64,000 nucleotides of DNA from Candidatus Gottesmanbacteria bacterium UBA6580 (lineage in GTDB: Bacteria > Patescibacteriota > Microgenomatia > UBA10105 > UBA927). Where the stretch lies: the NCBI GenBank assembly GCA_002433895.1, contig DJJA01000003.1, positions 511,745 to 575,744 on the forward strand. Direction: 5' to 3'. This document shows, piece after piece, positions 4,883-52,335 of this stretch. The notes below the pieces were generated by a model, which saw only the letters and a list, made by a program, of their open reading frames with translations, ran no database searches and was not told where the DNA came from. Within the stretch, counting starts at the first letter, position 1. Every line of letters starts with the position of its first letter. Both the position numbers and the translations under genes were made by a program.

Positions 4883-4928
4883 GCGTGCCCTGTCCTTATA
4901 GGCATTATAACAAAGAATACTTCATGAC
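4883..4928. promoter_or_regulatory. Very compact divergent intergenic region (46 bp) that must hold promoters for both strands
   Basis: Contains TATAGGCATTATAAC between the divergent start codons at 4882 (minus) and 4929 (plus). Confidence 0.25.
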
Positions 4929-6419: not shown

Positions 6420-6462
6420 AGCCGCGTAGTCAGAACCGGCCTGATTTAGTACAATAAAAGCT

Positions 6463-9341: not shown

Positions 9342-9462
9342 TATGCCGGGTAGTAGAATTTCGACACGATTTCGTTTCGTTGCCGGAATATAGACTGCCC
9401 AAATTTATATTGTATTGTTGATAAAATGAAGGGATATTGAAATCTTGTCATCGTAAAAAGCA

Positions 9463-11148: not shown

Positions 11149-11151
11149 TTT

Positions 11152-22988: not shown

Positions 22989-23772
22989 ATTGCTCTCGCT
23001 TATAATTCCGGTATATCACCAGGAAAAAACAATACGGAAACAACTCCAGAATATATTGGGGGAGTTGGCATTACTCGCGACTCCTTATGAACTTATTGTT
23101 GTCGTTGACGGCATGGATGATAAAAGTTTCGAAGAGGCGAAAAAAGTACGGTCCTCCAATTTGGTGGTTACGGGGTACAAGACAAATCATGGAAAAGGGT
23201 ACGCGGTCCGTTTCGGCATGGGAAAATCTCGCGGCGATATCATAGGGTTCCTGGATGCCGGCGGGGACTTAAGCGAATTGGGTCTTTCTATGATGCTTGA
23301 GCATTTTAAATGGTATAACGCAGATATCATTGTGGGGAGCAAGCGCCATCCTGTATCCAAAGTACAATACCCTGTTTCCAGAAAAATATTGTCCTGGGGG
23401 TATCAGCAGCTTACCAAGCTGTTGTTTGGGTTAAATGTCCGGGATACTCAGGTAGGGATGAAATTGTACCGCAGGAAAGTGCTGGAAGATGTCCTCCCGA
23501 GGTTGCTCGTCAAAGCTTTTGCGTTTGATATTGAAATTCTTGCGGTCGCACACCGTTTAGGTTACACGCGTATTTTTGAGGCTCCTGTTGAACTGGATTT
23601 TACTGGGGCGTCTAGTATCACGTCGTTAAGCGTTTGGAAAATAATACTGAACATGCTCAAAGACACGTTTGCCGTCTATTATCGTTTACGGATTCTTCAT
23701 TATTATGATAATCTCAACAAGCGTAAATGGAAGTTTGACGAAGAGCTTAATTTCCGGGTGGCAGTGCCGTAG
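22969..23772 (+). CDS. GT2-family glycosyltransferase
   Basis: Opens LSLIIPVYHQEKTIRKQL and contains LIVVVDGMDDKSFEEAKK and FLDAGGDL. Confidence 0.7.
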   Translation: MQSQNIKLLSLIIPVYHQEKTIRKQLQNILGELALLATPYELIVVVDGMDDKSFEEAKKVRSSNLVVTGYKTNHGKGYAVRFGMGKSRGDIIGFLDAGGDLSELGLSMMLEHFKWYNADIIVGSKRHPVSKVQYPVSRKILSWGYQQLTKLLFGLNVRDTQVGMKLYRRKVLEDVLPRLLVKAFAFDIEILAVAHRLGYTRIFEAPVELDFTGASSITSLSVWKIILNMLKDTFAVYYRLRILHYYDNLNKRKWKFDEELNFRVAVP

Positions 23773-25669: not shown

Positions 25670-26785
25670 ATGAATATTCTTATTTTTCACTGGCGGGATA
25701 CAAAACATGAGTGGGCAGGAGGTAGCGAGATTTATATCCAAGAAATATCTGAGCGATGGGTGGCATCAGGGCACTCTGTAACGATTTTTTGCGGTCAAAA
25801 TCTTGCCGGTAATATGCCCGGAGATGAAGTGCAGCGGGGTGTGCGAATAATCAGAAAGGGCGGCAGGTTTTCTGTATATGTTTGGGCATTTTATTATTAT
25901 TTGTCCCAATTCCGTACGTGGTGTGATGTCATTGTAGACGCGCAAAACGGTATACCATTTTTTACTCCACTCTACAGTAGAAAACCGAAGACGGTCTTAG
26001 TACACCATATTCACGGTCATCAATTTTTTGTGGAATTGCCATTTCCTTTTAATATCATAGGGTTTTGTATTGAGCATTACCTGTTTCCTCTTTTTTATAA
26101 AAAGGTGCGTATTATCGCCGTTTCTCAATCTACAAAGCACGAACTTGAGAAATTGGGATTTTCTCCGGACGATGTTCATGTGGTGTATAACGGCGTTACC
26201 GGTCATCACTCGCGGAAGGCAGATAACCAAAAGTTTATAACGCCGACCATATTATATTTGGGGCGGATAAAAAAGTATAAGCGCGTCGATCACCTTATAG
26301 AGATCATGCCGGAGATTGTAAAACAGGTTCCCAACGCGAGATTGCTTATCGCGGGGTGGGGTACCGAGGCATCGTCAGTCATAGACATATCCATGCGGGG
26401 AGCACTCCGGAAGAAAATACGAATTATCGGCCCGGTGAGCGAGAAGGAGAAAAAATATCTCCTGCAGAAATCGTGGGTGTTCGTAAACCCCTCTATGAAC
26501 GAGGGGTGGGGGATTTCCATTATTGAGGCAAATTCGTACGGAACTCCCGCAATTGCCTACAATGTCGCCGGGCTATCAGAATCTATTCGTGACAAAAAAA
26601 CAGGGCTTCTGGCACATGACAAGCATGAATTTACGCAACAAATTATACACTTGCTCAAGGACAGCTCGCTGCGTGCTTCGTTGGGTAAGGAGGCGATAGC
26701 GTGGTCACATCAGTTCAGTTGGGAAAAAACGGCGAGTGAAAGCTTACGTCTTATTACCGCTCAGAATAAGACGGCGAAGGTATGA
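25670..26785 (+). CDS. GT4-family glycosyltransferase
   Basis: Contains NEGWGISIIEANSYGTPAIAYNVAGLSESI. Confidence 0.85.
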   Translation: MNILIFHWRDTKHEWAGGSEIYIQEISERWVASGHSVTIFCGQNLAGNMPGDEVQRGVRIIRKGGRFSVYVWAFYYYLSQFRTWCDVIVDAQNGIPFFTPLYSRKPKTVLVHHIHGHQFFVELPFPFNIIGFCIEHYLFPLFYKKVRIIAVSQSTKHELEKLGFSPDDVHVVYNGVTGHHSRKADNQKFITPTILYLGRIKKYKRVDHLIEIMPEIVKQVPNARLLIAGWGTEASSVIDISMRGALRKKIRIIGPVSEKEKKYLLQKSWVFVNPSMNEGWGISIIEANSYGTPAIAYNVAGLSESIRDKKTGLLAHDKHEFTQQIIHLLKDSSLRASLGKEAIAWSHQFSWEKTASESLRLITAQNKTAKV

Positions 26786-28101
26786 AATTATCGAAAAACA
26801 TCACGGCCTTTTTAATAGCCGGTATTGTGATTATTGGCATACTACTTCGTGGAAACCAATACGCAACGTGGCCGAGGCTCGGGGCGACATTTGATGAGTT
26901 CGCTTGGGTGTGGCAGGGTATGAGCATATTAAAAGAAGGCGTGCCACGCTCGTGGTCGTATCATCCGCAGTACAAGGATCGCGAAATAATACAAATTAAC
27001 GGGGCAAATTTTATTCTCGTGCGCCCATATTTGGAGCACCCCCCATTTTTTGGGCTTGTAGCCGGCACATTTGCAATGCTTACCGGTCAATCGGAATTTA
27101 CTGATATACAACTGCCTAAAATCCGCATGTTTTCTCTGATATTGGGAACTGTTTCTGTTTTTTTCGTTTTTTGGCTTGCAGCGCTCATGTATGGTAATTT
27201 CACCGGACTTCTCGCAGCGCTCATCTATGCGATTACTCCAACCGTGGCGGTGGGATCGCGGCTTATGCAAAACGAAAATTTTTTTATACCCATGTGGCTC
27301 GGGATGCTTATATGTTTGTGGTATTACCTCAAAACCAATAACCGGAATTTGCGTACGGCAGTGGGTGTTTTGGGAGGGTTACTTATATTGGCGAAAATTC
27401 CATGGATCGCAGGAGCAATTTCCGCTGCCGGAATACTCTGGTATGTAAAACGGGTGAGTGATGCGTGGAAGGTATTACTCATCTCACTCGCGATAGGCAG
27501 CATATACATTTTTTATGGGTTTTACTTTGATAAAACCGTATTTACCGGGCTTATGGGGTTACAGCTTAACCGGTATGATATAACGTTTGCAGGTGTTTAC
27601 AGTCTATGGCTTAAGCCGTATCTTGCTGATCGTCTATTTTTGGACGGATGGATATACGGGGGATGGCTGGCACTACTTGTGCTCACTTCTTCAGTTAAAA
27701 AGCACTGGTTTTTGCTTTTCGCGGTTTTTTCTTACGCGGTGCTCTATGCCATCGGAATTCCGGATGAACCTGGGCACGGCTGGTACCGCTATCCGTTTTA
27801 TCCGTTCCTTTCGATAGCGACAGCGGTTGTCGTACGGGAATACATTTGGCCAAATCCGTTTTACCGTTTTACTTTTCTTTTGCTCGTTGGGTTACCGCTT
27901 CTTTCCGTTACGTGGGGAGTGAGTTATGGTTTTTCGTATTTTATATACCGCGGCTATATTCTATGGTCGCTTATTTCTTTCTTGCCATACGTGGCGCGGC
28001 ATAAATTGTCATCGCGGCTTACCGATGTGTCTTTCATTGCCCAATGTATTTTTATTTTTTCCCTCACCGTGTGGGCTATACTGGGGTATAATGAGCAGTA
28101 G
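26782..28101 (+). CDS. Polytopic membrane protein, GT-C candidate (GT39/ArnT-like)
   Basis: 439 aa, multi-TM, with a first loop RLGATFDEFAWVWQGMSILKEG carrying a DE motif. Confidence 0.45.
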   Translation: MKLSKNITAFLIAGIVIIGILLRGNQYATWPRLGATFDEFAWVWQGMSILKEGVPRSWSYHPQYKDREIIQINGANFILVRPYLEHPPFFGLVAGTFAMLTGQSEFTDIQLPKIRMFSLILGTVSVFFVFWLAALMYGNFTGLLAALIYAITPTVAVGSRLMQNENFFIPMWLGMLICLWYYLKTNNRNLRTAVGVLGGLLILAKIPWIAGAISAAGILWYVKRVSDAWKVLLISLAIGSIYIFYGFYFDKTVFTGLMGLQLNRYDITFAGVYSLWLKPYLADRLFLDGWIYGGWLALLVLTSSVKKHWFLLFAVFSYAVLYAIGIPDEPGHGWYRYPFYPFLSIATAVVVREYIWPNPFYRFTFLLLVGLPLLSVTWGVSYGFSYFIYRGYILWSLISFLPYVARHKLSSRLTDVSFIAQCIFIFSLTVWAILGYNEQ

Positions 28102-35369: not shown

Positions 35370-35396
35370 TTACCGGTTTATCCGGTGGGAACTTGT

Positions 35397-36002
35397 ATGG
35401 AACGTATATCTCAATTCGTATCCGCAGTCAGACGTAAAGGATTTATAGAAACCTCATTGCACCTTGTTGTGATGGGTATTGGCAGGGTAACTTCCTGGTT
35501 GCGGATAATTGTATTGAGGCTACGCGGGTATGACATTGCTTCCTCAGCGCTTTTGGGAAGTAACATATTATTTTTCCAAAGCACGTGGCGCGCGGTGAAA
35601 GTGGGTAACAATTCACGGATAGGTAATAACGCACGGGTCAGTGCCGGCGGGACTGGGAACGTTGTCATTGCAAATGATGTATTGATCGACGATAGCACCT
35701 ACGTCATGGCGCACGAAAAAATAATCATCGGTAAGAATACGAAAATTGCTGCATTTTGTTTTATTACCGATTTTAACCATGAGTTCCGTGACCGGGAAAA
35801 ACCACTTAAAGATCAGGGGTATGTTACCAAACCGGTGGTGATAGGTGAGAACGTGTGGATAGGTACACACGTGGTGGTGTTACCTGGTGTCACTATTGGG
35901 CCGGGTAGCGTGATCGGCGCGGGGTCGGTGGTGACAAAAGACATACCCGGAAATGTCGTAGCTGTAGGAAATCCCGCCCGTGTCATACGAAAGGCGTCCT
36001 AA
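35397..36002 (+). CDS. Hexapeptide-repeat (left-handed beta-helix) acetyltransferase
   Basis: Repeats IGNNARVSAGGTGNVVI...IGKNTKIA...IGENVWIGTHVVVLPGVTIGPGSVIGAGSVVTKDIPGNVVAVGNPARVIRK. The ORF track starts at GTG 35385. ATG 35397 is preferred because it is preceded by GGTGGGA. Confidence 0.75.
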   Translation: MERISQFVSAVRRKGFIETSLHLVVMGIGRVTSWLRIIVLRLRGYDIASSALLGSNILFFQSTWRAVKVGNNSRIGNNARVSAGGTGNVVIANDVLIDDSTYVMAHEKIIIGKNTKIAAFCFITDFNHEFRDREKPLKDQGYVTKPVVIGENVWIGTHVVVLPGVTIGPGSVIGAGSVVTKDIPGNVVAVGNPARVIRKAS

Positions 36003-38225
36003 ATGAGAATGGAAAAAAAAGTACCCCCACGGATTTGGCTGATGATGAACGTGGTAATCGTGGGCTTGCTTTTATTTTTGCCCTATTATTTATTCGGCGG
36101 GAGATTATTTTTAGGAGGCGATGATACTCGGATTTTTTATGCGTATCCCCGTGAGGTGATGCAAAGCCTCGCAATATATTCGTGGAATACGATTTCATCG
36201 CTCTCTTCCTATACGCCTAACCATCAGTTTTTCCCGTTTTTGGCCATTCTTTCATGGTTAGAGACGCTCATCCAGTCAAAAACTCTGTTGTTTTATTTTA
36301 CTTTTTCATTGCCGCTTATACTGGGATTTATTTATTTCCAGAAATTCGTTCTGCTAATTATAAAAAGCGAGTATTATGCAGCATTTGTTGTCGCGTTGCT
36401 TTATATACTATCTCCCGTGACCATGTTTAGCCAGTTATTATATTTCCTTTCCCCGGCATGGCTGATCGCTCTGTTTCCGATTTATGCCTATTATTTTTTG
36501 AAGTACATTCAACACGGGGGTTCGACGGATGTGTACAAAGTTGTATTTTGGGCAATTTTGTTTTCGTTTGCAAATCTTGGAGTGCCATGGTTGGGTGGAC
36601 TTTTTTTACCATTTATACCAGCAATTATTTTGTTTTTTATCCGGGATAGACGGTCAATTCTTCCGTATGTTAAGCGGAGCGTCATTTTTGGGATTTCGCT
36701 TGCGGTAAGCCAGTTATTTTGGGTCGTGCCATTTGTTATATCACTCTTATATCAGGGGGACATCGGTTATGCCGCCCGGGTGACCGATGCTGCCGCAACA
36801 TTTGCCGCAACCGTCAATGGAACAGCGACCGGTAATGTAATATATCCGCTCCTCACATTTTATCACCGGCAGTTTTTAAGCGATATTAATCAGCCGCTTG
36901 TGGCAATATTTGCTAACTACTATGATTATATACTGCCAATAAGTCTTATTTTTGTCGTGATATTGGCCATGGGGATTTTGCAGTATAAAAAAGTGTTTCG
37001 GAACGAACATTTGTACGTTTTCCACATTTTTTTAATTGCTTTTTTGGCAGCACTATATTTTTTCACAGTAAATATAGGTGTGCTTAAGGACATCTTTATT
37101 CTGATGGGATACATCCCCGGGTTCGGTATGTTCCGGAATTTTACTGACAAGTTTGCGCTCGGGTATATTTTCGTGTATGCGTCTCTTCTATATATATGTC
37201 TATTTGTTATACATAAGACCAGTAAATTTTATCGACTCATCCTCGTTACCGCATTCATTGCAGTATTCCTGAATGCAGCCCCCGTTAAACAGATTGTTGA
37301 TAGTCCATTATGGACGACCAAAGATATTTCCAGAATCCTAAATATCCCCTCTGAATATCTTTCGTTTATGGACGATATCCGTAAAAATATTCCTCCTTCC
37401 GGTCAGATTTTTAGCTTACCACAAAATATCGCTTCGTACGCAATTATTACCGAGGATGACGGGAGGCACACTTACGCTGGTGTATCGCCTGTTAAATTTT
37501 TTACCGGAGTAAATGACCTCAGTGGTAGTGGTTCGTATCCTCCGCAAATAGAAGAGCAGATTAAAGGTGCAATAATAGCGCGAAATTACGAAAAACTATT
37601 GACTATACTCCGTAAAATTAATGTCTCGCATGTAATGGTAACGAACAACACGCCGCCGTCTGTACGAAAATCTTATATGTATAACGCAGATTATCTTTCA
37701 TATCAGGATCAGGCGCTGGTGGACGCAATTGTTGACAAAGAGGTGATGAGGAGCACTCAGGGTAATTACGTATTATATCAACTAAAGAATCCTACAATGG
37801 TGATAACATCTCAGGCTAACATCGACTATATACGTGTATCTCCTATCCAGTACGAAGTGACAGTACGTGGCATATCATCGCCGCAGAAACTCCTATTTGC
37901 GGAAACGTATCATCCCGGCTGGAAAGTATATCCCTCAACGGGAGCTGGAAAAACGGATAATGAAACAACGTTATACACTAAGCTCGACAAAGCATTGTTC
38001 GTTGACTCTCATAAACCCGCATCATCCTATGGTAATGAATGGACAATCGATCCCATGGCTATCAGAGCTTTAGGTAGTTCGTACTACACGTCAAACACAG
38101 ATGGAAGTGTAAACGCAAAAATTGTGCTGTATTTTCAACCGCAGATATACGCTTATGTAGGCGCAATACTCACCTTTTTTTCACTTAGTGTTGTTTTTAT
38201 ATACCTGAAAAAACAAAAGATATGA
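36003..38225 (+). CDS. Large YfhO-like/GT-C polytopic membrane protein with C-terminal extracytoplasmic domain
   Basis: 740 aa. N-terminal loop GGDDTRIFYAYPRE, more than 12 TM helices, then a soluble domain containing AETYHPGWKVYPSTG and a final TM helix. Confidence 0.5.
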   Translation: MRMEKKVPPRIWLMMNVVIVGLLLFLPYYLFGGRLFLGGDDTRIFYAYPREVMQSLAIYSWNTISSLSSYTPNHQFFPFLAILSWLETLIQSKTLLFYFTFSLPLILGFIYFQKFVLLIIKSEYYAAFVVALLYILSPVTMFSQLLYFLSPAWLIALFPIYAYYFLKYIQHGGSTDVYKVVFWAILFSFANLGVPWLGGLFLPFIPAIILFFIRDRRSILPYVKRSVIFGISLAVSQLFWVVPFVISLLYQGDIGYAARVTDAAATFAATVNGTATGNVIYPLLTFYHRQFLSDINQPLVAIFANYYDYILPISLIFVVILAMGILQYKKVFRNEHLYVFHIFLIAFLAALYFFTVNIGVLKDIFILMGYIPGFGMFRNFTDKFALGYIFVYASLLYICLFVIHKTSKFYRLILVTAFIAVFLNAAPVKQIVDSPLWTTKDISRILNIPSEYLSFMDDIRKNIPPSGQIFSLPQNIASYAIITEDDGRHTYAGVSPVKFFTGVNDLSGSGSYPPQIEEQIKGAIIARNYEKLLTILRKINVSHVMVTNNTPPSVRKSYMYNADYLSYQDQALVDAIVDKEVMRSTQGNYVLYQLKNPTMVITSQANIDYIRVSPIQYEVTVRGISSPQKLLFAETYHPGWKVYPSTGAGKTDNETTLYTKLDKALFVDSHKPASSYGNEWTIDPMAIRALGSSYYTSNTDGSVNAKIVLYFQPQIYAYVGAILTFFSLSVVFIYLKKQKI

Positions 38226-41200
38226 TGTCAGCACCAGATATTATTAAAAAATATATTGTCGTACCTATCGCACTTTTGTTGTTCTGGCTTATTATTTCGC
38301 TCATTGTGGTTTCTTCCGAGAGTTTTACTGTTTTGACGTATCCGGAAACCAATAACTCTCGTATTGTAAGCACCGACGACGGGTATTTGATGAAAGGACA
38401 AAAGCTAAGAGGTGAGTTTGTCGCCAGACAAGACAATCTTGGTATAGTGTCGGTAAAAGTGGACAAAGTGAGTTATACCGGCGAAGAAGATTTACTCGTA
38501 TTCAGGATAAAAGAGCAAGGCGCAAGCGATTGGCTACACACAAATGAATATAAAGGCGGAATATTTCGGGGGAGCAGAGTTTTTACTTTTGGCTTTCCGA
38601 TAATTGAGTCATCTCGGGGACACACGTATTATTTTGAATTGGAGTCTTTGAAGGGTACTGCCGTCAATGCTATTCAAATTTCGAACGCAAGCCCCATCAT
38701 TACCAGTAGATATAAGTTTTCTAAGAGTGATATTTTAAATACCTCTTTCTTTCCCGAATTCCTGATTGCGAAAGTACACACATTGTTTATTAACACTGAC
38801 CATTTGTCTTCTACGGTGATATTTCTAATGCCGTTTGTTTTGTACATAATGGGGTTGTTATATAACGCCCGCAATATCAGTGTATTTAAAAAATACCAGT
38901 TCATCGCATTGATGGTGGTCTTATTTATTTTTTACGATACTTTTTTCGCGCGACTGCATTTGGAGATAGTCTTTTTTACCTTATTGGCATTTTGGTTATA
39001 TGCCATTCATATAAACAAGATGAGCCACGCAATTTCTTTATATCTGGCACTTCTGATACTCGTGGTGAGCGTTTGTTTTACATATTCTAAAATAGAATTC
39101 TCTATAAACAGGGCGAGCGCATGGATTTACTTCCTTATCCTAATTGCCGGGGTGCAATCTATATATGGCCTATACACACCAGCCGCTGACTTTATGCGGA
39201 ATATAACCTCAAGACTTTTCGCGCCTTTACATAAATTGGCAGCACCGAAGATAGAAGGTACCACGCTATTAGTTATCGTAGTGATGTTATTTATTTACCG
39301 AAATTGGCTCGGGGGAGGCTTACTGACCGCTCCTGATTTTCCCTACTATTTCACCCAGCGGTTTAGTGAAATCAATTGGTTGCCTTCGGCATGGACAAAT
39401 TTAGGCGCCTCAAGCCTTGGCGAGCCGGGGTTAAGCGGGTTAAATCTGAATACGTATGTAAGTATCGGAACGAAGCTTTTTGTGCAGATTTTCCGGATAC
39501 CATGGGACGTAGCGTCACGTATGCTCTTTTTTTGGCCATTTTTACTAGTGGGCGCTCTCTCATCATATTACTGTGGATATTTCATGCTAAAAAACCGATT
39601 ATGGGCAACGTTATCCATGCTTATTTATCTGTCGAATTCCTACATTCTTATGATTGCCGGTGGCGGCCAAGTTGGTATATTTATGGCGTACGCAATAGCT
39701 CCTCTTGTTCTGGGAAGTTTTACGCGGCGTAGTGTTGTGATCTTTACAATCGCGCTAACACTCATATTGTTGTTTGATCTGCGGATAAGTTTGCTTATAT
39801 TCTTTGTCCTGTTTTTGTACGTTATATGCGTCCTACCAGTGAAGGAGTGGTCAGGTGTTATTCGTTTCGGTATATTGCCAGCGGTTATTACACTTGGACT
39901 TCACAGTTTTTGGTTGCTTCCGGTGATAGCCGCGCGCGGCATTACCTTGCCCGGTGATTTTGCAGATCCCAAATGGCTGACGTTTTTAAGTTGGGCGGAG
40001 TTTTCCAAAACACTATCGTTGCTTCATCCAAATTGGCCAGAAAATATTTTCGGAAAAACGTATTTTATGCAACCTGAGTTTTTGTTGTTGCCGATTGCTG
40101 CCTATGGATCGCTATATTTGCTTATCCAAAAACGCAGAGGGATCATACGCGATGTCTCGGTGAATGCTTTCCCGACATACAGGATACTTATCTTTGTCTC
40201 ATTGCTCGGATTAATCGGCGCATTTTTATCCAAAGGGGTAAACCCTCCAATCGGGGAATTGTACCGCTGGATGTTTGAGCATGTACCGTTTTTCAGCGCT
40301 TTCCGTGAACCAACCAAGTTTTATTTGCTGACATCGCTTTCTTATAGCGTGCTTATCCCATGGTCACTTATGGCAGCAACAACATGGATAGAACATAGAT
40401 TTAAATATGTTTCTGCCGCGCCCGTGATAGTGTTTATTTTGTCAGTTATCACTTGGAGCGGGATTATCCGTCAGGTGTTTTTGGGTGAGGTTCGCGGATC
40501 ATTCTCTCGGGTGACAGTGCCGCCCGCATACCAGCAATTTGCAGGACTAGTAACAATGACGCCGGATTTTAGCAGGACTCTTGCAGCTCCATGGAAAAAT
40601 AGATTTATTTACGAATCAGAAAATCATCCGGTAATAAGTGCAAGTGAGGTGTTTCATACGACTGATATACGCACGCTGGCTGACATTCTTGAAACCGCAT
40701 CTGCCGCTGCGACACTCCGGAGGCTGGCAGTCACTCATATTGTTGTGCCTGATGATTTTATGCACGAAATTTTTCTTACTGATCGGCAATATGATCCTAA
40801 TTTGCAGCGTCAGTTAGTTCGTTCTCTTGATAATCAACAGTATTTTCGCAAAAGAGATGATGTAGTTGGGCTTGATGTATACGCCGCCACTTCGGACAGT
40901 GGATTATTTTATGCAGATGATGATAAGGCAAGCACACTGTTTCCCCACTCCATGTATTCGCCGGCAAAGTATATTGTTACTATTCCTGACTACAATACGA
41001 TTTCTCCTATGGTTTTTGCCCAGGGCTATGATCCCGGATGGCGGCTGTGGGACGGAAACACCGTTATGCCGAGTGAAAAAACGGCTGATGGGCTGAACAG
41101 CTTCAGGATAGAGGTGAGTAAGCCAGTAACTGCTGAAGTGTATTATGAGCCGCAGCAATGGGTGGATAAGGGGTACAAGGTTACCGTTTTCATATTCATT

Positions 41201-42232
41201 ATTGTGATGACCGGAATTGTTATCAGGCAATTTAGCAAAATTCTTCCTCTAAAATTCAGTTATTTGGCTTTTATACTTACACTTGGAATGGCATCGTATA
41301 TATGGCGCGGAGGTTTTATTACACCCCGTGAAGTAATTACGGATCCGAATATACGATGGGGTCAGCAGTGGGGGACTGTGTCTGTTGCAGGGTTTACTGA
41401 AAAGGTATCGCGCTACGGGGGAAGCGAGATGCTATTTGTGGTGCCGGGGGGGTCGGGTGTGAAGATTACCATAGCTCAGTACCGCCCTGAACAGGATAAC
41501 GCAGTGCAGATATGGGTAGACGGAAAAGAGCATGCTGTATCAGAGACGGCGAATGTATCCGAACAAACGATACATATTTTAGCGGAAAAACATCCGCGTA
41601 GCGTACGGGTGCGTACATATTGTTCAGGTGATTTATTTTGTCAGACCCGTATCAGATCCATAAAGCTTCATAATAAAGGAAGCCTTGCGAAAGTGAATGA
41701 GGATCCTGTTACAAAAATGGCAGTATTGGGTGATAGTCTTACATCACTATATGGGCACCATAATTATGTGTATAAAATCGCCGATAAGCTAAACTGGCAG
41801 ATTCATAACGCCTCTTTTATCGGTTCTACATTAACGGATCATCCCGGCGTTCTTCCGGGTATTACAAGGCTAAAGAGTGATATCGTTGCCATAAAGCCTG
41901 ATGTTATCGTGTTGGCCTTGGGGACGAACGACGCGATCCAACGGGTTCCAATTGATGAGTTTGTCCGCACATATGAACAGATGATTGCTGATATACGGGA
42001 GTCGCTGCCTAACGTGAAGATGTATTCGGTAGGGTTACTGGCAAACTACGCAGGAGTAATTCCAGTGGTTGATGGGTATAATAATGCGATAAAGGCTGTG
42101 AGCAAAGCACAAAATGTGTCATATATTCCTATGAACATGATTTTACAAAAGTATGATTTTGTGGATACGATCCATCCGTCAGAAGAAGCGCAGGAAAAAA
42201 TGGCTGAACACGTATTAACATTTATCGAATAA
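38222..42232 (+). CDS. Giant membrane protein: N-terminal extracytoplasmic domain, YfhO-like multi-TM core, YDPGW beta-domain, and C-terminal SGNH/GDSL hydrolase domain
   Basis: 1336 aa. Hydrophobic core from about aa 190 to 760. AQGYDPGWRLWDGN motif and a TM at about aa 975. The C-terminus reads KMAVLGDSLTSLYG...VIVLALGTNDA...VDTIHPSEEAQEKMAEHV, matching SGNH blocks I, III and V (Ser, Gly/Asn, Asp-x-x-His). Confidence 0.6.
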   Translation: MMSAPDIIKKYIVVPIALLLFWLIISLIVVSSESFTVLTYPETNNSRIVSTDDGYLMKGQKLRGEFVARQDNLGIVSVKVDKVSYTGEEDLLVFRIKEQGASDWLHTNEYKGGIFRGSRVFTFGFPIIESSRGHTYYFELESLKGTAVNAIQISNASPIITSRYKFSKSDILNTSFFPEFLIAKVHTLFINTDHLSSTVIFLMPFVLYIMGLLYNARNISVFKKYQFIALMVVLFIFYDTFFARLHLEIVFFTLLAFWLYAIHINKMSHAISLYLALLILVVSVCFTYSKIEFSINRASAWIYFLILIAGVQSIYGLYTPAADFMRNITSRLFAPLHKLAAPKIEGTTLLVIVVMLFIYRNWLGGGLLTAPDFPYYFTQRFSEINWLPSAWTNLGASSLGEPGLSGLNLNTYVSIGTKLFVQIFRIPWDVASRMLFFWPFLLVGALSSYYCGYFMLKNRLWATLSMLIYLSNSYILMIAGGGQVGIFMAYAIAPLVLGSFTRRSVVIFTIALTLILLFDLRISLLIFFVLFLYVICVLPVKEWSGVIRFGILPAVITLGLHSFWLLPVIAARGITLPGDFADPKWLTFLSWAEFSKTLSLLHPNWPENIFGKTYFMQPEFLLLPIAAYGSLYLLIQKRRGIIRDVSVNAFPTYRILIFVSLLGLIGAFLSKGVNPPIGELYRWMFEHVPFFSAFREPTKFYLLTSLSYSVLIPWSLMAATTWIEHRFKYVSAAPVIVFILSVITWSGIIRQVFLGEVRGSFSRVTVPPAYQQFAGLVTMTPDFSRTLAAPWKNRFIYESENHPVISASEVFHTTDIRTLADILETASAAATLRRLAVTHIVVPDDFMHEIFLTDRQYDPNLQRQLVRSLDNQQYFRKRDDVVGLDVYAATSDSGLFYADDDKASTLFPHSMYSPAKYIVTIPDYNTISPMVFAQGYDPGWRLWDGNTVMPSEKTADGLNSFRIEVSKPVTAEVYYEPQQWVDKGYKVTVFIFIIVMTGIVIRQFSKILPLKFSYLAFILTLGMASYIWRGGFITPREVITDPNIRWGQQWGTVSVAGFTEKVSRYGGSEMLFVVPGGSGVKITIAQYRPEQDNAVQIWVDGKEHAVSETANVSEQTIHILAEKHPRSVRVRTYCSGDLFCQTRIRSIKLHNKGSLAKVNEDPVTKMAVLGDSLTSLYGHHNYVYKIADKLNWQIHNASFIGSTLTDHPGVLPGITRLKSDIVAIKPDVIVLALGTNDAIQRVPIDEFVRTYEQMIADIRESLPNVKMYSVGLLANYAGVIPVVDGYNNAIKAVSKAQNVSYIPMNMILQKYDFVDTIHPSEEAQEKMAEHVLTFIE

Positions 42233-42243
42233 TAATTTTACAT

Positions 42244-43914
42244 ATGATATCTTTGCTCAGAAAATTCCTTTTTGTATTTTTTATATTTTTCTTGATTATT
42301 TTTGTAGTTACGTACGGTTTGTTACGTGGATACTTTCAGCAGGATGAGTGGCTGGGGATAGCATTGACTATCAAAGCCTTTAGTCTGCCATGGTGGGATA
42401 TTTTCGTTCCTGGAAATTTGCATTTTTCACCGTTGGGTCAAGCTATCTGGCGATCAATGTACAATGTGTTCGAGCTTCGGGCAGAATATTATTTCATCGC
42501 TCAGCTGATTGTTCACGTGAGTACATCAACACTTGTCTATATCCTGACAGAAAGACTGACGAAGAAGAAAGGGGTGGCAGCAATCACCGGACTGTTGTTT
42601 TTATTAAACGGTCGGGCACACCAGGCATTTACTCACTTAGCGATTTTCCATGTGACGACGACCGCCATGATGTTTATATTACTATTTTTTGTTTATTTAT
42701 CCGGTTTAAAAGAATATGTGATACGGGCTGGGCAGGGATTGATGTTATTTTTGATTTTTTTGGCCGCCGTGTGCACCAGGGAAGAGGGGTATATGCTTAT
42801 CCCGCTTTTTGCTGCGTACCTGTGGTGTTTTGACCGAAAGAAAATTAGCTGGCAAAACGCAAAATTTTATAGTTTGTTTACATTGGGGGTGGGAGCGTTT
42901 ACGGCATTCCGGTTATTCGCGCAGACGTTATATACTACGCCCATACCTATCCAGTATCAGGTGACCGGCGCCGGCGCTGAATACAACATTGTTACCCTAC
43001 CGTTTAAATTTATCGTACAGAACTTAATCTATTCTGAACGAATAGGGTTATTTATGCTCGCAAACACCCAAAAATTGTATCCCGCCATAGAGTCGTTTTT
43101 CACCAGTCACGCGCCGATGTATGACGCAGGATTTTTCTATGTGTATAGCGTTATAGCCAGTGTTGCGGCGCTGTGGTTATGGTTGGTGAGACCCAAAGGC
43201 TTAGAGCCATTAGCGCTGTTTTTTGCGGTATGGATAATGACCAATGCTGCAGTCCTCGCATTCGTTGGCAGGCACATATCGGTGTTGGAGCCGCGATATT
43301 TGTACTACTCGGCGTTTCCGGTACTGTGTATGACGGGAGTATTTATTCACTCGTTATTTACCTATAAAGGAAAGATGCGCATAGTGGAGCTTGGCACCAA
43401 AGCATTTTCAGTTGCACTACTCGTGGCACTGTTACTCACGTCATTTCAGGAAATACGTGACGTGGTAAATAAGCAGTATAGGGACGGAGTTGCAAAGAAG
43501 CAAATTTTTTCCAGTCTTATGAAAGTGCACCCGGAACTTTCTGATAATACTATTTTTTACCTGCAGTGCAGCAAGCCGTGTTATAGGAACCGTGAATTCG
43601 GTGCGGATGTGCGAAATATTCTTCCGTTTTCATCGGGCCCTGGTATGATATTTTTGGTTCACTATGCCGTAGGACAGGAAAAAAAGTGGGGTGACTTTTT
43701 CACACAAACATTTTTGTTTGATACATATGCTGAGGATTATAAGAAAATTGGCAATCGAAGCTTCGGCTATTTCACGACTAAAGAAAAACTAGAAAAAACG
43801 CTTCGGGATAACAATCTTTCTGAGGATATCGTCGTGGCTTTAGAAGTGAACGAACAGGATTATACTTTTACTGACATATCAGAATCATTCAGAAAAACAT
43901 TAACAATTAACTGA
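42244..43914 (+). CDS. Polytopic membrane protein, GT-C candidate
   Basis: 556 aa, multi-TM. N-terminal loop YFQQDEWLGIALTIKAF, then a C-terminal soluble region. Confidence 0.4.
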   Translation: MISLLRKFLFVFFIFFLIIFVVTYGLLRGYFQQDEWLGIALTIKAFSLPWWDIFVPGNLHFSPLGQAIWRSMYNVFELRAEYYFIAQLIVHVSTSTLVYILTERLTKKKGVAAITGLLFLLNGRAHQAFTHLAIFHVTTTAMMFILLFFVYLSGLKEYVIRAGQGLMLFLIFLAAVCTREEGYMLIPLFAAYLWCFDRKKISWQNAKFYSLFTLGVGAFTAFRLFAQTLYTTPIPIQYQVTGAGAEYNIVTLPFKFIVQNLIYSERIGLFMLANTQKLYPAIESFFTSHAPMYDAGFFYVYSVIASVAALWLWLVRPKGLEPLALFFAVWIMTNAAVLAFVGRHISVLEPRYLYYSAFPVLCMTGVFIHSLFTYKGKMRIVELGTKAFSVALLVALLLTSFQEIRDVVNKQYRDGVAKKQIFSSLMKVHPELSDNTIFYLQCSKPCYRNREFGADVRNILPFSSGPGMIFLVHYAVGQEKKWGDFFTQTFLFDTYAEDYKKIGNRSFGYFTTKEKLEKTLRDNNLSEDIVVALEVNEQDYTFTDISESFRKTLTIN

Positions 43915-43918
43915 CTTT

Positions 43919-44533
43919 TCATTTAATTTTTTCTGCGATCACAAACATTCCATGTGAGAGAGGTCTGATGCGCCCGTACTGATTGTATTCCAGAACTCGA
44001 AAACCGTGCGATTCGACCATTTTTATTAAACTTTTCTTGGTAAAAAATCGAATGTGTGGGGTTGTTGGTTCGTAGACGATATCAAATCCAATAAGTGCGA
44101 TAACAATATTTTTTATAAGACCGTGATAAGGAGTGCTGATAAATATTTTGCCGCCATTTTTTAAAATTCTATTCATTTGTGTTAGAAAAATTCTGGCATC
44201 AAAAATATGCTCAATAACATCCCCAGCTATAACATAATCGACCGAATTACTTTTTACGGGAATTTTTTCATCACCTGAAATTCGATAAAATGTTACATCG
44301 GGAAATCTTTTTTTTGCTTTTTTGAGTGCGTATTCTGAGATATCGGCACCGATCATCTTATATGTGCCTACGTCTGAGATGGCCTGAATATACCGACCGT
44401 CTCCGCAACCAAAATCGAGAATAGTACTGTTTTTCTTGGGAAGTGTGCGTTTTATGTTTGGCCACTTCCATTTGAAGTCATTACTGACTCCTATGGCGCC
44501 GTCTTTCCACCATTGATCATAGAATTTTTTCAT
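43919..44533 (-). CDS. Class I SAM-dependent methyltransferase
   Basis: Contains ILDFGCGDGRYIQAISDVG...VIAGDVIEHIFDARIFLTQMNRILKNGGKIFISTP. Convergent with the upstream + gene, with only 4 bp between the two stops. Confidence 0.75.
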   Translation of the reverse strand: MKKFYDQWWKDGAIGVSNDFKWKWPNIKRTLPKKNSTILDFGCGDGRYIQAISDVGTYKMIGADISEYALKKAKKRFPDVTFYRISGDEKIPVKSNSVDYVIAGDVIEHIFDARIFLTQMNRILKNGGKIFISTPYHGLIKNIVIALIGFDIVYEPTTPHIRFFTKKSLIKMVESHGFRVLEYNQYGRIRPLSHGMFVIAEKIK

Positions 44534-44558
44534 GGTGAATAGTATAGCAGTTTGTATG

Positions 44559-45611
44559 TTAATCTTCTCGCTGAGTATTTCCTATTCCATAGGTACCGGT
44601 TGTTTTGGTGATGCCCAATAGGTACAGCGATGCTTCCTTTAATATGAGCCCGGTAAGTAATAGGCATGCGATTGGATGCCAGAATACTACGGGGTCTCGA
44701 TATAAGCGAAATAACTGTATAGTGTCCAATACCGGAAAGATAAACGAAACTGAATAAAATGGAAACAGAATCTGCCTGGCTTTTCGCATTGGACTAAAAT
44801 ATTTTTGTCGGTTAACAATCCCCATGCCTTTCACCTTTTGCAAGAAGTTATTTCTTATTCTCCATGCATATTTTTTAAGAAATTCACCGATATTGGAAAC
44901 ATGATAATGATATATACCGGCCGATGGAACATACGCAACCAAACCCTCTTTTATTAGCTTTATCCCCGATAATATATCATCATTATGACCGATACTTTCC
45001 CTTTTGAAACCCGACATTGTTCCGAATCCCTGTGACAAACCAAGTAGTGGGTGATTCATGGGGTCAAATTTATAAATTGCATACTCAGTCGTCCGTTTTA
45101 TCGGTGTATACAAATTCCCATATGTGCGGGGAGTAGAGGCCCAGCGATAAACAAACCAGGTGAATGGATCAGTTGAGATGTATCCCATATACCGATCAAA
45201 TGAATTCCAGTTCGGTGGGGGAATTGTTTGCGATAGGAATCCCAGAATGTGCATGTGCCTGTTTTCCATGTGGGCACGAACCATTCCTGAGACCCATTCT
45301 GTCGATGATAGCTCATTGTCGGCGTCGGTAAAGAAAAGAATTTCTCCGGTCGCCACTTCGGACGCCCGCGCTTTTCCCGGCTCGTGGAGGACTTCGGGAT
45401 TTTTGATAATGACCGCTTTATATTTTTTCGCAATAGTCAGCGTTTCATCAGTGGAGCCGCCATCCGCAACAATAATTTCAATTTTGTTTTGCGGATAGTT
45501 TTGTGCACGGATAGCACGGAGGCACTGCGGCAAATACCGGGAGGCGTTGAGCGTCGGGATGATAAACGAAACTATAGGTAGCGACAGTTGGCGCACGTGA
45601 GTTTTTTTCAT
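44559..45611 (-). CDS. GT2-family glycosyltransferase with C-terminal membrane anchor
   Basis: Opens VSFIIPTLNASRYLPQCLRAIRAQNY...IEIIVADGGSTDET and carries FFTDADNEL. C-terminal hydrophobic helices. Confidence 0.8.
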   Translation of the reverse strand: MKKTHVRQLSLPIVSFIIPTLNASRYLPQCLRAIRAQNYPQNKIEIIVADGGSTDETLTIAKKYKAVIIKNPEVLHEPGKARASEVATGEILFFTDADNELSSTEWVSGMVRAHMENRHMHILGFLSQTIPPPNWNSFDRYMGYISTDPFTWFVYRWASTPRTYGNLYTPIKRTTEYAIYKFDPMNHPLLGLSQGFGTMSGFKRESIGHNDDILSGIKLIKEGLVAYVPSAGIYHYHVSNIGEFLKKYAWRIRNNFLQKVKGMGIVNRQKYFSPMRKARQILFPFYSVSFIFPVLDTIQLFRLYRDPVVFWHPIACLLLTGLILKEASLYLLGITKTTGTYGIGNTQRED

Positions 45612-45739
45612 ATGGGCGAAAAATAATTGAGGCGCGTGACAACTATATGCGCCGAACTATATAATAGTCTATTCGTATAAAGAATAATATCCGTGAGTCG
45701 TCCTATTAGAGTGGGTTAAATTTCTACTGTTGTCTGAGC
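45612..45739. promoter_or_regulatory. AT-rich divergent promoter region between the minus-strand GT2 gene and the plus-strand GT4 gene
   Basis: 128-bp gap that is the only sizeable intergenic region in the central part of the window. It contains TATATAAT, TATAAAG and TAATAT boxes and a GCGCGTGAC...ATGCGC palindrome. Confidence 0.4.
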
Positions 45740-46912
45740 ATGAAGCGTCGAACACCGAAGACCATAGTATACGTGAATTACTCTCCGTATGAAAATGCGG
45801 GGAAAATACTGGATTATCTCCTGGGGCAGTACTCGGTTGTGTGTCTTTTTTCCTTTAGTTTTTACCGTCTGTCAAACCGAACGAGTTACAACACGCTTCA
45901 GATATATAAAAACGGTTCACTTTCGGAGACCTACCCGTTATTTCAGATTCCCGTAATACCCAAGCTCATATTTTTGTTTTTACCGGTTCAGTCGATCATT
46001 ACGTTTCTTGATATCGTTTTTTACTCACGCATGCTTAAAGCGAAGTTTAAAACGTTGGATCTGTACTTTACGGTGAATGCGTTTACCGCGTGGGTCGGAC
46101 TTTTATTAAAGAAAATCAACGTTGTGAAAAAGACAATGTTTTGGGTATGGGATTATTATCCGCTCACAAAAGAAAAATCGATTGTCATGCTCATGCGTCA
46201 CTTTTACTGGCAATTCGATAAGGTGAGTTCCCACTCGGACATCGTCGTGTTTCAGAATAAGATGCTTTTGGATTTACGTAAACGAATGGGAATATACCCC
46301 AGAACTTCGGCATACGCTATCGTCCCGTTAGGAACTGATAAAATTGCCTATTCATATACCCACAAAAAATTTACCCGAAATACGCTTGTATTCGGGTTTA
46401 TTGGGGTACTTAAAAAAAGTCAGGGAATTGAAATAGTTTTTAACAATGCCGCAGCGCTTAAGAAAATATACGGTGAGGTGCGATATGAAATAGTCGGCTC
46501 CGGTCCTGATGAAGAATATCTGAAATTAATTGCCAAACGCTCCGGTATAAACGCGACGTTTCATGGCTACCTCGAGGGGGAAACGTTTAATGAGGTACTG
46601 CGCGCTACCGATATCGGGATTGCGACGTATGTACCGGATAAAGGGAACGTGTCTCCGTATGGTGACCCGGGTAAAATTAAGCGGTATTTAAGCTTGGGAA
46701 TTCCCGTGATAACTACCGATGTTCATCAGTTGGCGGGGGATATCGAAAAGTCCGGTGCCGGTATGGTGGTTGAATTTTCGAGCTCGCGATCGTTTATGGG
46801 AGCCGTCAAAACAATTTTGGGTAAACACGCGTCGTTTAGTAAGCAAGCATATAATTTTAATCAGCGCTTTTATTATAAAAAAATATACAGAGAAATGTTC
46901 CGCAATATATAA
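45740..46912 (+). CDS. GT4-like glycosyltransferase
   Basis: The C-terminal half has a GT4 fold signature (...VGSGPDEEYLK...LSLGIPVITTDV). Confidence 0.55.
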   Translation: MKRRTPKTIVYVNYSPYENAGKILDYLLGQYSVVCLFSFSFYRLSNRTSYNTLQIYKNGSLSETYPLFQIPVIPKLIFLFLPVQSIITFLDIVFYSRMLKAKFKTLDLYFTVNAFTAWVGLLLKKINVVKKTMFWVWDYYPLTKEKSIVMLMRHFYWQFDKVSSHSDIVVFQNKMLLDLRKRMGIYPRTSAYAIVPLGTDKIAYSYTHKKFTRNTLVFGFIGVLKKSQGIEIVFNNAAALKKIYGEVRYEIVGSGPDEEYLKLIAKRSGINATFHGYLEGETFNEVLRATDIGIATYVPDKGNVSPYGDPGKIKRYLSLGIPVITTDVHQLAGDIEKSGAGMVVEFSSSRSFMGAVKTILGKHASFSKQAYNFNQRFYYKKIYREMFRNI

Positions 46913-51462: not shown

Positions 51463-52335
51463 ATGGCGTTGGATTTATCCATTATTATCGTTAGCTTCAA
51501 TACCAAAAAACTTACGGAAGATTGTCTGACCTCTGTCATGAGGAGCCTCAAAGATGCCAAACTAACCTGGGAGATAATCCTTATCGATAACGTTTCGACA
51601 GACGGTACCCGGGAAATGCTCAAAAAGAAATTCCCCATGGTCCGTACTGTATTAAATGATGAAAATGTCGGATTTGGAAAAGGGAACAATCAGGGTATCC
51701 GGATGAGCAGGGGTGAGTATATATTATTGTTAAACTCAGATACCATTGTCCTCAATAATTCGATAGTGAAGCTTGTTTCTTACGGACGCCAGCACCCGAA
51801 CGCGTTTATTGGCCCCAAGTTGCTTAATCCCGACCGCAGCCCGCAAAGCTCGTGTGGTCCGTTTTTTAGTCTGCCGGTCGTATTTGCGTCGCTGTTTTTG
51901 AAAGGGGATTATATTGGATTAACGCGTTGGTCACCGACACGCGCCCGTAAGGTCGACTGGGTATCTGGAGCCTGTATACTTGCTCCAAAAAAATTGTTTA
52001 TGCAGGATTTGTTATTTGACGAGAATATATTTATGTACATGGAAGAAATCGACCTCCTTATGCGGGCGCGGAAAAAAGGGTATCCAACCTATTTCTATCC
52101 TCGTAGTCTTATCGTACACTTAGGAGCAGCAAGTTCGACAAACAAGCGAAAAGGGCCGGTGTTGAATATTTACCGGGGATTTCTTTATCTGTACCGGAAG
52201 CACGGCTCGCCTGTAGGCTTGTGGCTTGTCCGCGCTATGCTTAAAATAAAAGCAGTGCTTGCCTGGGTGATCGGGGCAGTATTGGGGAAGGAAACACTCA
52301 AAGACACTTATGCAGAAGCTTATAAAATGGTGTAA
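51463..52335 (+). CDS. GT2-family glycosyltransferase
   Basis: Opens LSIIIVSFNTKKLTEDCL...IILIDNVSTDGT and carries LLLNSDT. Confidence 0.8.
   Translation: MALDLSIIIVSFNTKKLTEDCLTSVMRSLKDAKLTWEIILIDNVSTDGTREMLKKKFPMVRTVLNDENVGFGKGNNQGIRMSRGEYILLLNSDTIVLNNSIVKLVSYGRQHPNAFIGPKLLNPDRSPQSSCGPFFSLPVVFASLFLKGDYIGLTRWSPTRARKVDWVSGACILAPKKLFMQDLLFDENIFMYMEEIDLLMRARKKGYPTYFYPRSLIVHLGAASSTNKRKGPVLNIYRGFLYLYRKHGSPVGLWLVRAMLKIKAVLAWVIGAVLGKETLKDTYAEAYKMV

Follow-up and report, generated by a model that had tools for sequence, protein, structure and literature searches.

Does a single polypeptide in the surface-glycan locus of a member of the Patescibacteria combine sugar transfer with the editing of acyl groups, and what would such a combination do? 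The question is raised by an open reading frame (ORF) of 1336 codons at 38222..42232 (plus strand) of a 64,000-nucleotide (nt) stretch of Candidatus Gottesmanbacteria bacterium UBA6580 (contig DJJA01000003.1, positions 511,745 to 575,744), the whole of which is called the window here. An earlier reading of the DNA made without database searches (the sequence-only reading) described the product as a fusion of a YfhO-like, glycosyltransferase-type membrane core with a C-terminal SGNH/GDSL hydrolase. The 1336-amino-acid (aa) protein joins a glycosyltransferase (GT) core of the GT-C fold, a two-helix membrane hairpin and a predicted outward-facing CE2-like esterase in one chain. This architecture is real, conserved and rare, and it is undescribed in the searchable literature; its parts are known singly, as GT-C enzymes and as SGNH esterases, and their combination is new.

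The ORF runs from its ATG to the stop codon at 42230-42232 without an internal stop or change of frame. Its start shares 4 nt with the stop of the ORF upstream (36003..38225) and the next ORF begins 12 nt further on, at 42244; the spacing of the ORFs over 36003..43914 is operon-like. The identical 1336-aa protein was recovered from NCBI, JGI, Logan and ENA data. An orthologue of 1344 aa, 55% identical, is present in the gene order of the window on 23 contigs that come from several samples (locus L002), and at least 21 protein clusters have an unbroken junction between core and esterase. The sources of fusion homologues that bear a name are all Patescibacteria/CPR (candidate phyla radiation), the nearest named genome being that of Candidatus Gottesmanbacteria UBA5942. 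The claim of one polypeptide with a membrane core and a C-terminal SGNH domain is thus borne out by the intact frame, the four data sources and the orthologue, and a frameshift or assembly error joining two genes, which the sequence-only reading had named as its possible undoing, is ruled out by the same recoveries. The wider suspicion that the long ORF merges two or three separate genes through sequencing or assembly error draws on the fact that its parts do occur as genes of their own: the N-terminal module (P0026), the core alone (thousands of proteins) and the esterase module (locus L006). Set against the four identical recoveries, the orthologue with the same three-part layout, the unbroken junction in 21 clusters and the clean frame, it is scarcely credible.

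The domain anatomy (Table 1) combines hydropathy, alignments and two AlphaFold2 models, one of residues 340-1336 (mean pLDDT 77.5, pTM 0.61) and one of residues 1-360 (mean pLDDT 62.5). Three sets of sequences were aligned: 13 close homologues, 21 fusion homologues for the esterase module (20-49% identity) and 150 representatives of the core family (~30% identity). Pfam gave nothing above threshold on the full fusion protein besides two GDSL models, Lipase_GDSL_2 (PF13472; residues 1168-1325, E 1.2e-19, 72 bits against a cut-off of 32.9) and Lipase_GDSL (PF00657; E 1.1e-13, 52.3 bits against 23.6). The three SGNH motifs reported earlier lie at residues 1170-1172 (GDS), 1234-1237 (GTND) and 1315-1318 (DTIH), and their residues are invariant in the 13 close homologues. 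Ser1172, Asn1236, Asp1315 and His1318 are, moreover, invariant in 21 of 21 fusion homologues, which disposes of the doubt whether the catalytic Ser and His are conserved, and the Block II glycine (Gly1201) is kept in 19 of them. Such strict invariance across divergent sequences is the signature of a working catalytic site; by fold and motifs the C-terminus is a genuine SGNH hydrolase.

Foldseek searches of the Protein Data Bank (PDB) placed CE2 esterases at the top for this module: 2wab (E 3.4e-11, TM-score 0.70) and 2wao (E 5.9e-11, TM-score 0.67), both CtCE2, followed by CjCE2 (2waa), 4xvh and Est2A (3U37). The alignments to 2wab, 2wao, 2waa and 4xvh cover the beta-jelly-roll and the SGNH domain together (337-359 columns, TM-score 0.63-0.70). 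On the jelly-roll, Pfam CE2_N (PF17996) stays sub-threshold (E 0.11, 13 bits against 27.9). A profile search of PDB sequences matched GDSL esterases and reached the CE2 chain 4xvh in two stretches (E 5e-4). In many CE2 members a Trp of the Block V loop accompanies a Ser-His dyad, CjCE2A being an exception with a triad, according to a review of SGNH proteins (PMC9487903). Block V of the window protein reads D-T-I-H, that of the homologues D-x-[VIL]-H; neither has a Trp, and a Ser-His-Asp triad is therefore expected, as in CjCE2A. The cysteines C1134 and C1140 of the jelly-roll are invariant in the 21 sequences, and a disulfide between them would fit an extracytoplasmic location.

The position of the esterase relative to the membrane can be predicted from what precedes it. 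The domain of residues 749-976 is the counterpart of the periplasmic domain of AftD and follows, in the model, an odd number of core helices. It is succeeded by the hairpin, whose turn is basic in all homologues (for example RKRRIRN or RRLRLKKK); core-only relatives of ~650-700 aa stop after the first hairpin helix. Since the hairpin follows a periplasmic domain and its basic turn obeys the positive-inside rule, jelly-roll and SGNH domain should lie outside, beside the periplasmic domain of the GT-C core. The esterase is thus predicted to face outward, and model, hydropathy and hairpin turn agree on the extracytoplasmic SGNH domain for which the sequence-only reading had called for a topology prediction. 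The PGW motif and the N-terminal extracytoplasmic module of that reading were recovered as well, as D938-P-G-W followed by W943-D-G and as a module of ~165 aa. The five-helix bundle, the two-helix hairpin, the beta-jelly-roll and an adjacent O-acetyltransferase gene had not figured in it.

For the membrane core, the mycobacterial arabinofuranosyltransferase AftD is the sole GT-C enzyme among the 50 Foldseek matches listed (6W98, E 2.3e-7; 6WBX, E 1.3e-7; 6WBY, E 1.1e-6). The ~11 helices and the extracytoplasmic domain superpose on this solved GT-C structure over ~980-985 columns at a modest TM-score of 0.29-0.34. AftD has an 11-helix GT-C core in which K39 and D41 of the first outer loop are essential, active-site loops that are conserved yet disordered, and a large periplasmic domain with extra beta-sandwich modules, three carbohydrate-binding modules (CBMs) among its features, after which the chain re-enters the membrane (10.1101/2019.12.22.885152). 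In the target, Asp372 of the first outer loop does not vary among the 13 close homologues and is kept by at least 90% of the 150 representatives, while N472, R521, R695, K699 and R785 are invariant across these representatives. The conserved SLLHPNWPENIFGKTYF loop, modelled at pLDDT <50, parallels the flexible conserved active-site loops of AftD, and conservation of the core is strongest in the extracytoplasmic loops, as for catalytic GT-C enzymes. PDB sequence-profile searches with the 13- and 150-sequence core profiles reached no solved structure for the core, and Pfam GT-C_AftD (PF11847) did not match the target; elsewhere this model is marginal in one relative (E 0.003) and faint on one neighbouring large protein. 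Within the window, hhalign related the core-family profile to the PTPS_related/GT-C_AftD ORF in its transmembrane (TM) part (89.9%) and to the 740-aa ORF directly upstream (97.7%, E 2e-12). The latter match extends to the domain of residues 749-976 and gives 'FRNFTDKF' as the counterpart of the FREPTKFY motif. The membrane core is a GT-C-fold enzyme of the YfhO/AftD/PTPS_related corner of the GT-C clan.

Membership of YfhO itself was rejected: Pfam YfhO (PF09586) has no match to the core at E<=1, with the true YfhO of the window (1014..3299, minus strand) scoring 70.5 bits as positive control. Between this YfhO and the core profile, hhalign aligned 155 columns (95.5%, E 1.6e-8) that cover the C-terminal PGW beta-domain and the last helix only; the TM cores of the two proteins did not align. 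The earlier label 'YfhO-like' therefore holds for the GT-C clan and for the C-terminal domain and has to be given up as a family assignment.

A profile of the core alone, run against 1.84 billion cluster representatives, found 9,742 core-family representatives (clustered at 50% identity) at E<=1e-3, of which 2,142 pass E<=1e-30. The family is covered by no Pfam model, and sampled core-only members show just marginal GT-C clan matches. Nearly all of the best 150 representatives consist of the core alone, measure 640-735 aa and have a single C-terminal helix at their end. In a further size group, of ~860-907 aa, an insertion lies inside the matched core region, and Pfam detected no SGNH domain in the members of this group that were scanned (P0036, P0041, P0061 and P0079). 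Fusion-type lengths (950-1010 or 1335-1352 aa) are found in 12 of the 150, all 12 ranking within the top 15, and Pfam confirmed the SGNH domain in every fusion-length member that was scanned or had precomputed domains. The fusion thus occupies a small sub-branch within this large, unannotated GT-C family, and still fewer members (P0001, P0002/P0003, P0034) have the long form, which includes the N-terminal add-on. The core family, represented in the window by 39257..41230 and with P0038-P0171 among its members, merits a family definition of its own.

Table 1. Coordinates of the fusion gene, its predicted domains and neighbouring or comparable features (window positions unless a locus is named)
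Feature	Position	Strand	Basis or remark
Whole 1336-aa ORF: N-terminal add-on, GT-C core, 2-TM hairpin, CE2-like esterase	38222..42232	+	ORF translation; full-length homologues
N-terminal anchor helix, residues ~4-33	38231..38320	+	hydropathy peak 12-30; helix 4-33 in model
Predicted extracytoplasmic beta-sandwich, residues 37-165	38330..38716	+	strands in model, pLDDT 60-89
Five-helix TM bundle, residues 192-314	38795..39163	+	low-confidence model; hydropathy
GT-C TM core, ~11 helices, residues 346-748	39257..40465	+	model; Foldseek to AftD; hhalign
Asp372 in first outer loop ('APDF'), candidate catalytic acid	39335..39337	+	conservation; parallel to AftD D41
SLLHPNWPENIFGKTYF, most conserved motif, residues 599-615, long outer loop after TM7	40016..40066	+	near-invariant family-wide; pLDDT <50
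FREPTKFY motif with Arg695 and Lys699	40301..40324	+	both invariant in 150 representatives
Extracytoplasmic alpha/beta + beta domain with 'DPGW...WDG', residues 749-976	40466..41149	+	model; hhalign
Two-helix membrane hairpin, residues 978-1005 and 1010-1029, K/R-rich turn	41153..41308	+	model helices; hydropathy; alignment
Beta-jelly-roll, CE2 N-terminal-domain type, residues 1050-1149, Cys1134/Cys1140	41369..41668	+	Foldseek; Cys conservation
SGNH/GDSL domain, residues 1165-1336: Ser1172, Gly1201, Asn1236, Asp1315, His1318	41714..42229	+	Pfam PF13472; PDB sequence matches; conservation
Hexapeptide-repeat acetyltransferase, proposed O-acetyl source	35385..36002	+	Pfam Hexapep; NCBIfam WbbJ
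740-aa distant GT-C paralogue without esterase	36003..38225	+	hhalign; also upstream in L002
556-aa multi-pass membrane protein	42244..43914	+	downstream neighbour in several fusion loci
Small GT2, candidate lipid-linked donor supplier	21034..21729	+	polyprenyl-phosphate sugar synthase-type NCBIfam matches
Small GT2, second candidate donor supplier	22969..23772		
Wzx-type flippase	21702..22988		
Initiating sugar transferase	62379..63023		
YfhO	1014..3299	-	Pfam
PTPS_related/AftD-like	3248..4882	-	Pfam
GT87	6463..7722		Pfam
Weak YfhO	14294..16003		Pfam
PMT_2, six times	4929, 7719, 9463, 11152, 26782, 55498		Pfam
Small membrane protein, fusion loci	L005 6159..6563; L006 9034..9420; L011 5019..5408; L012 5022..5414		
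Small membrane protein, core-only loci	L009 6628..6993; L010 1976..2335; L014 1937..2248; L015 1044..1433		

The gene order around the fusion bears on its function. The acetyltransferase gene just upstream of the 740-aa ORF has sugar O-acetyltransferases as its best NCBIfam matches (WbbJ, E 6.6e-32; LacA, WcaF and Maa), all below curated cut-offs, and the N-acetyltransferase-type NeuD/PglB/VioB model scores far lower on it. An orthologous acetyltransferase gene lies adjacent to the fusion gene, or one gene away, in six of six fusion loci and in none of four core-only loci. In the short-form fusion loci (L005, L006, L011 and L012) the order is a large GT-C-like gene, a gene for a ~130-aa membrane protein, the hexapeptide acetyltransferase and the core-SGNH gene, the last two overlapping by 4 nt. 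In the long-form loci (the window and L002) the acetyltransferase is followed by the 740-aa GT-C gene and the fusion. The core-only loci (L009, L010, L014 and L015) have the large protein, the small protein and the core, with no acetyltransferase between them. Given the count of six against none, esterase module and cytoplasmic O-acetyltransferase appear together.

The reading that we favour, to which we give about an even chance, is that of a bifunctional enzyme at the outer face of the cytoplasmic membrane, which adds a sugar to a surface glycan and strips O-acetyl groups from it. A polyprenyl-phosphate-linked sugar, made on the cytoplasmic side, would be taken outside by the GT-C domain, this type of donor being suggested by analogy with the fold class, and would be attached to a cell-surface glycan or glycoconjugate built by the surrounding locus. 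Asp372, the conserved HPNWPENIFGK loop and Arg695/Lys699 form a candidate active site for this step. The WbbJ/WcaF-type acetyltransferase would install O-acetyl esters in the cytoplasm, and the hairpin-tethered jelly-roll and SGNH domain would hydrolyse them on the same polymer. Deacetylation before glycosylation would unmask the acceptor hydroxyl; afterwards it would trim the product. The coupling of sugar transfer with O-acyl editing, put forward in the sequence-only reading, is strengthened by the co-occurring O-acetyltransferase gene, and it is a plausible inference. There are precedents for both elements: SGNH/GDSL esterases carry out biosynthetic trimming in the deacetylation of plant xylan in the Golgi, and acetylation is transient in the export of corynebacterial trehalose monomycolate. 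A stricter version, which we consider improbable, treats the O-acetyl group as a built-in protecting group. The left-handed beta-helix (LbH) enzyme would acetylate the lipid-linked sugar or repeat unit, the acetyl group would cross the membrane on the glycan, and the SGNH domain would either take it off, baring the very hydroxyl that the neighbouring GT-C active site glycosylates, or shift it to another position, all as one obligatorily coupled machine. If the acetyl group were moved, the O-acetylated lipid-linked sugar would be an acetyl carrier, and extracytoplasmic O-acetylation would need neither AT3 nor MBOAT.

The main rival, which seems rather unlikely to us, makes the SGNH domain an extracytoplasmic O-acyltransferase resembling OatA-C, PatB or OafA-C, so that the polymer would be glycosylated and then O-acetylated. 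Membrane-tethered SGNH domains of the envelope are often transferases (PMC9487903), the SsfX3 acyltransferase is among the structural matches, and several unassigned polytopic proteins flank the fusion gene. Pfam DUF459/PatB (PF04311), a transferase family, also matches the target (E 0.019, 14.7 bits) and some homologues (down to E 3e-5, at most 23.8 bits) weakly, in every case under its gathering threshold of 27.2 bits. Such a transferase would, however, need an unrecognised outward route for acetyl, through the unassigned membrane neighbours, the five-helix bundle or an O-acetylated lipid-linked sugar, and among the window ORFs of at least 150 aa, the fusion included, Pfam found no AT3 (PF01757) or MBOAT (PF03062) domain. 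Both in structure and in sequence the module matches hydrolytic CE2 and GDSL esterases best, and the co-inherited cytoplasmic LbH O-acetyltransferase already gives an acetylation route, so that a second acetylation step is unneeded. A different role for the module, as a domain that chiefly binds or positions carbohydrate for the GT-C acceptor, or that cleaves a lipid ester in the manner of lysophospholipases or TesA, appears doubtful. One of the matched CE2 entries, 2w9x, is presumably CtCE2 fused to a cellulase. Its title claims catalytic as well as non-catalytic binding roles for the esterase active site, and the three CBMs of AftD (10.1101/2019.12.22.885152) would likewise agree with a binding role; the invariance of Ser, Asn, Asp and His in 21 divergent sequences nevertheless favours retained catalysis. 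As to lipid esters, one source labels a member 'lysophospholipase L1-like esterase' and TesA-type thioesterases are among the sequence matches. Lysophospholipase is, however, a generic COG label, NCBIfam TesA reaches 28 bits against a cut-off of 270, and the pairing of jelly-roll and SGNH domain is specific to carbohydrate esterases.

The core, too, could be something other than a sugar transferase. It might act as a polymerase or a ligase, or simply keep the esterase, as a scaffold or anchor, where the glycan is exported. The family of ~9,700 representatives lacks a characterised member and a Pfam model, and the TM-score of the AftD match is modest (0.34 at best), which leaves room for such roles. 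Against them stand the first-loop acid and the several Arg, Lys and Asn residues that are invariant or nearly so in 150 representatives at ~30% identity, a conservation that peaks in the outer loops as in catalytic GT-C enzymes, and the fact that most family members have no esterase to anchor; we hold a non-transferase core to be very unlikely. The favoured bifunctional enzyme has its own weak points. Its function, like that of the core family, is read from sequence and structural models, and the model (pTM 0.61) leaves the orientation of the domains to one another uncertain. Sequence does not reliably separate SGNH esterases from SGNH O-acyltransferases, and the weak DUF459/PatB matches of some homologues point toward the latter. 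Several neighbouring membrane proteins fit no family, and an acetyl translocase could hide among them. With the acetyltransferase scoring below the equivalog cut-offs, O- rather than N-acetylation is likely rather than proven, and the association of six loci against none may stem from one ancestral gain instead of repeated selection.

Each of the known systems nearest to the fusion resembles it in part. With AftD it shares the ~11-helix core, the acid in the first loop, the conserved flexible loops, the periplasmic domain with beta-sandwich add-ons and the return to the membrane. It differs in showing no detectable sequence similarity, in its host (Patescibacteria instead of Actinobacteria) and in its add-on modules, which are CBMs in AftD and a catalytic-type esterase here. 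AftD closes, moreover, with a four-helix bundle that faces the cytoplasm and to which acyl carrier protein binds, whereas the target ends in a hairpin and an outward esterase. Proteins of the YfhO/GtlB family (PF09586) are GT-C enzymes that take part, with CsbB/GtlA and GtcA, in the glycosylation of lipoteichoic acid (PMC5836110, PMC7389260). The PGW C-terminal beta-domain and the terminal helix of YfhO are homologous to those of the fusion, and by analogy the same logic would be expected, with a small GT2 making the polyprenyl-phosphate sugar that the GT-C enzyme then uses outside. No YfhO has been described with an esterase, and no paper of the searchable literature names YfhO and SGNH together. 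The CE2 acetyl esterases (CtCE2, 2WAO/2WAB; CjCE2A, 2WAA; Est2A, 3U37) have the same succession of jelly-roll and SGNH domain and the same Blocks I, II, III and V, at an identity of just 15-17%; many of them, unlike the target, have a Trp in Block V. They are secreted and degrade plant polysaccharides, whereas the target module is tethered through the membrane to a biosynthetic enzyme in a glycan locus. OatA, OafA/OafB and PatA-PatB also unite a polytopic membrane domain with an outward SGNH domain that modifies an envelope glycan (PMC9487903); their membrane part is an AT3 or MBOAT translocase and their SGNH domain a transferase, in contrast to the GT-C core of the target. The available part of the same review mentions AT3-SGNH fusions, and a GT-SGNH fusion was not found in it. 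Searching the literature for GT-C, SGNH and fusion together returned only an unrelated work on Legionella effectors, in line with the earlier statement that the architecture is not recognised from characterized proteins.

Taken as a Rosetta stone, the fusion argues that in the host organisms one and the same polymer is the substrate of extracytoplasmic glycosylation and of O-acetyl editing, and the co-inherited acetyltransferase makes this a testable functional hypothesis. It also offers a first functional handle on the very large GT-C family to which the core belongs. It bears on how ultra-small CPR bacteria build their surface, glycan genes taking up a striking share of a ~1-Mb genome. Should the two activities be mechanistically coupled, nature would offer here a compact example of how protecting-group logic serves the assembly of glycans, and the protein would be a useful two-in-one biocatalyst; should they be merely co-located, the fusion would be a modest addition to the domain combinations of carbohydrate-active enzymes (CAZymes).

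The standalone copy in L006 shows that the esterase module works as a partner protein of its own as well. A gene for a membrane-anchored jelly-roll and SGNH protein lies just downstream of the fusion gene in L006 (12911..13915) and in L007 (3322..4215); the L006 copy is 27% identical to the fused module (E 4e-42). In the sub-branch P0011-P0013, which includes L006, the fused jelly-roll is reduced, and a standalone esterase beside such a fusion suggests duplication or replacement of the module.

The first 345 residues of the target form a separate add-on of anchor helix, beta-sandwich and five helices, the last followed by a basic linker. The five-helix bundle is absent from the short-form homologues (950-1010 aa). 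With one helix, a sandwich outside and five more helices, the chain would be back in the cytoplasm before core helix 1, so that the predicted topology is self-consistent. Foldseek gave weak generic jelly-roll or CBM matches for the sandwich (CBM15, CBM6, CBM32 and F5/8-C; E ~1e-4, TM-score <0.5), and as these come from a low-confidence model (mean pLDDT 62) no family was assigned. The sandwich module is mobile: it stands alone in P0026 (354 aa) and P0027 (276 aa) and is fused to an unrelated polytopic protein in P0014 (909 aa). We take the add-on to be an optional accessory, perhaps one for glycan binding or positioning. The gene for P0026 sits between two other large membrane-protein genes. 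The idea that it lies upstream of a core-family gene was rejected, the neighbour downstream being another kind of membrane protein, whose first loop is GT-C-like; the upstream neighbour has weak similarity to the 740-aa ORF. In P0131 (1541 aa) a Pfam YfhO region (754-835) and a complete copy of the core family (892-1538) stand in tandem as two GT-C-type regions. Domain shuffling among such membrane enzymes thus appears frequent (P0131, P0014).

A membrane protein of 103-134 aa without a Pfam family is always encoded between the large GT-C-like gene and the core gene, in short-form fusion loci and core-only loci alike, and is missing from the long-form loci. An origin of the five-helix bundle from this ~130-aa protein was not supported, BLAST giving nothing and hhalign 20% (E 0.001); the hhalign alignment did cover the expected region of the bundle (residues 251-316), which is merely suggestive. 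The 556-aa protein encoded downstream of the fusion has no match in Pfam, NCBIfam or PDB sequences, nor has its family in Pfam or the PDB. This family comprises 44 homologue clusters whose existing source names are all Patescibacteria, and its first loop has an invariant, GT-C-like QDEW, while a Cys pair is conserved in its C-terminal soluble domain. The gene is likewise downstream in L002, and an unannotated ORF of similar size occupies that position in L005 and L012. Comparison rejected the 556-aa protein as a member of the core family or of PMT_2.

The window as a whole is one long surface-glycan locus with many GT1/GT4 and GT2 genes, epimerases/dehydratases and methyltransferases; it also encodes a nucleotidyltransferase and two hexapeptide acetyltransferases. 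The two small GT2s that are candidate donor suppliers have AglJ, dolichyl-phosphate hexose transferase, ArnC and PpgS as best NCBIfam matches, all below curated cut-offs. By Pfam the window holds at least ten GT-C-type membrane proteins (Table 1), to which the target core and its 740-aa paralogue are to be added. This density, over 1014..16003, 26782..28101, 36003..43914 and 55498..56946, is unusual for a genome of ~1.1 Mb. The G+C content is 0.40-0.44 over 36001..46000 and 0.45-0.49 in the flanks, with a GC skew near zero at 36-38 kb. The low-G+C cassette contains the 740-aa GT-C gene, the fusion, the 556-aa gene and two minus-strand genes (a methyltransferase and a GT2), and may be a variable or acquired part of the glycan locus.

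A polytopic ORF of 1063 aa at 52310..55501 (plus strand) has a weak match to Wzy_C (O-antigen ligase/polymerase; E 0.019), and unannotated ORFs of 999-1062 aa are placed likewise after a GT2 gene in L005, L006, L007 and L009. This ORF could encode the polymerase or ligase of the locus. As a paralogue of the fusion it was rejected on comparison. Three further ORFs of 411-519 aa without a Pfam family, at 17192..19962 and 12789..14348 (plus strand), stand next to a DUF5667 protein (16758..17279).

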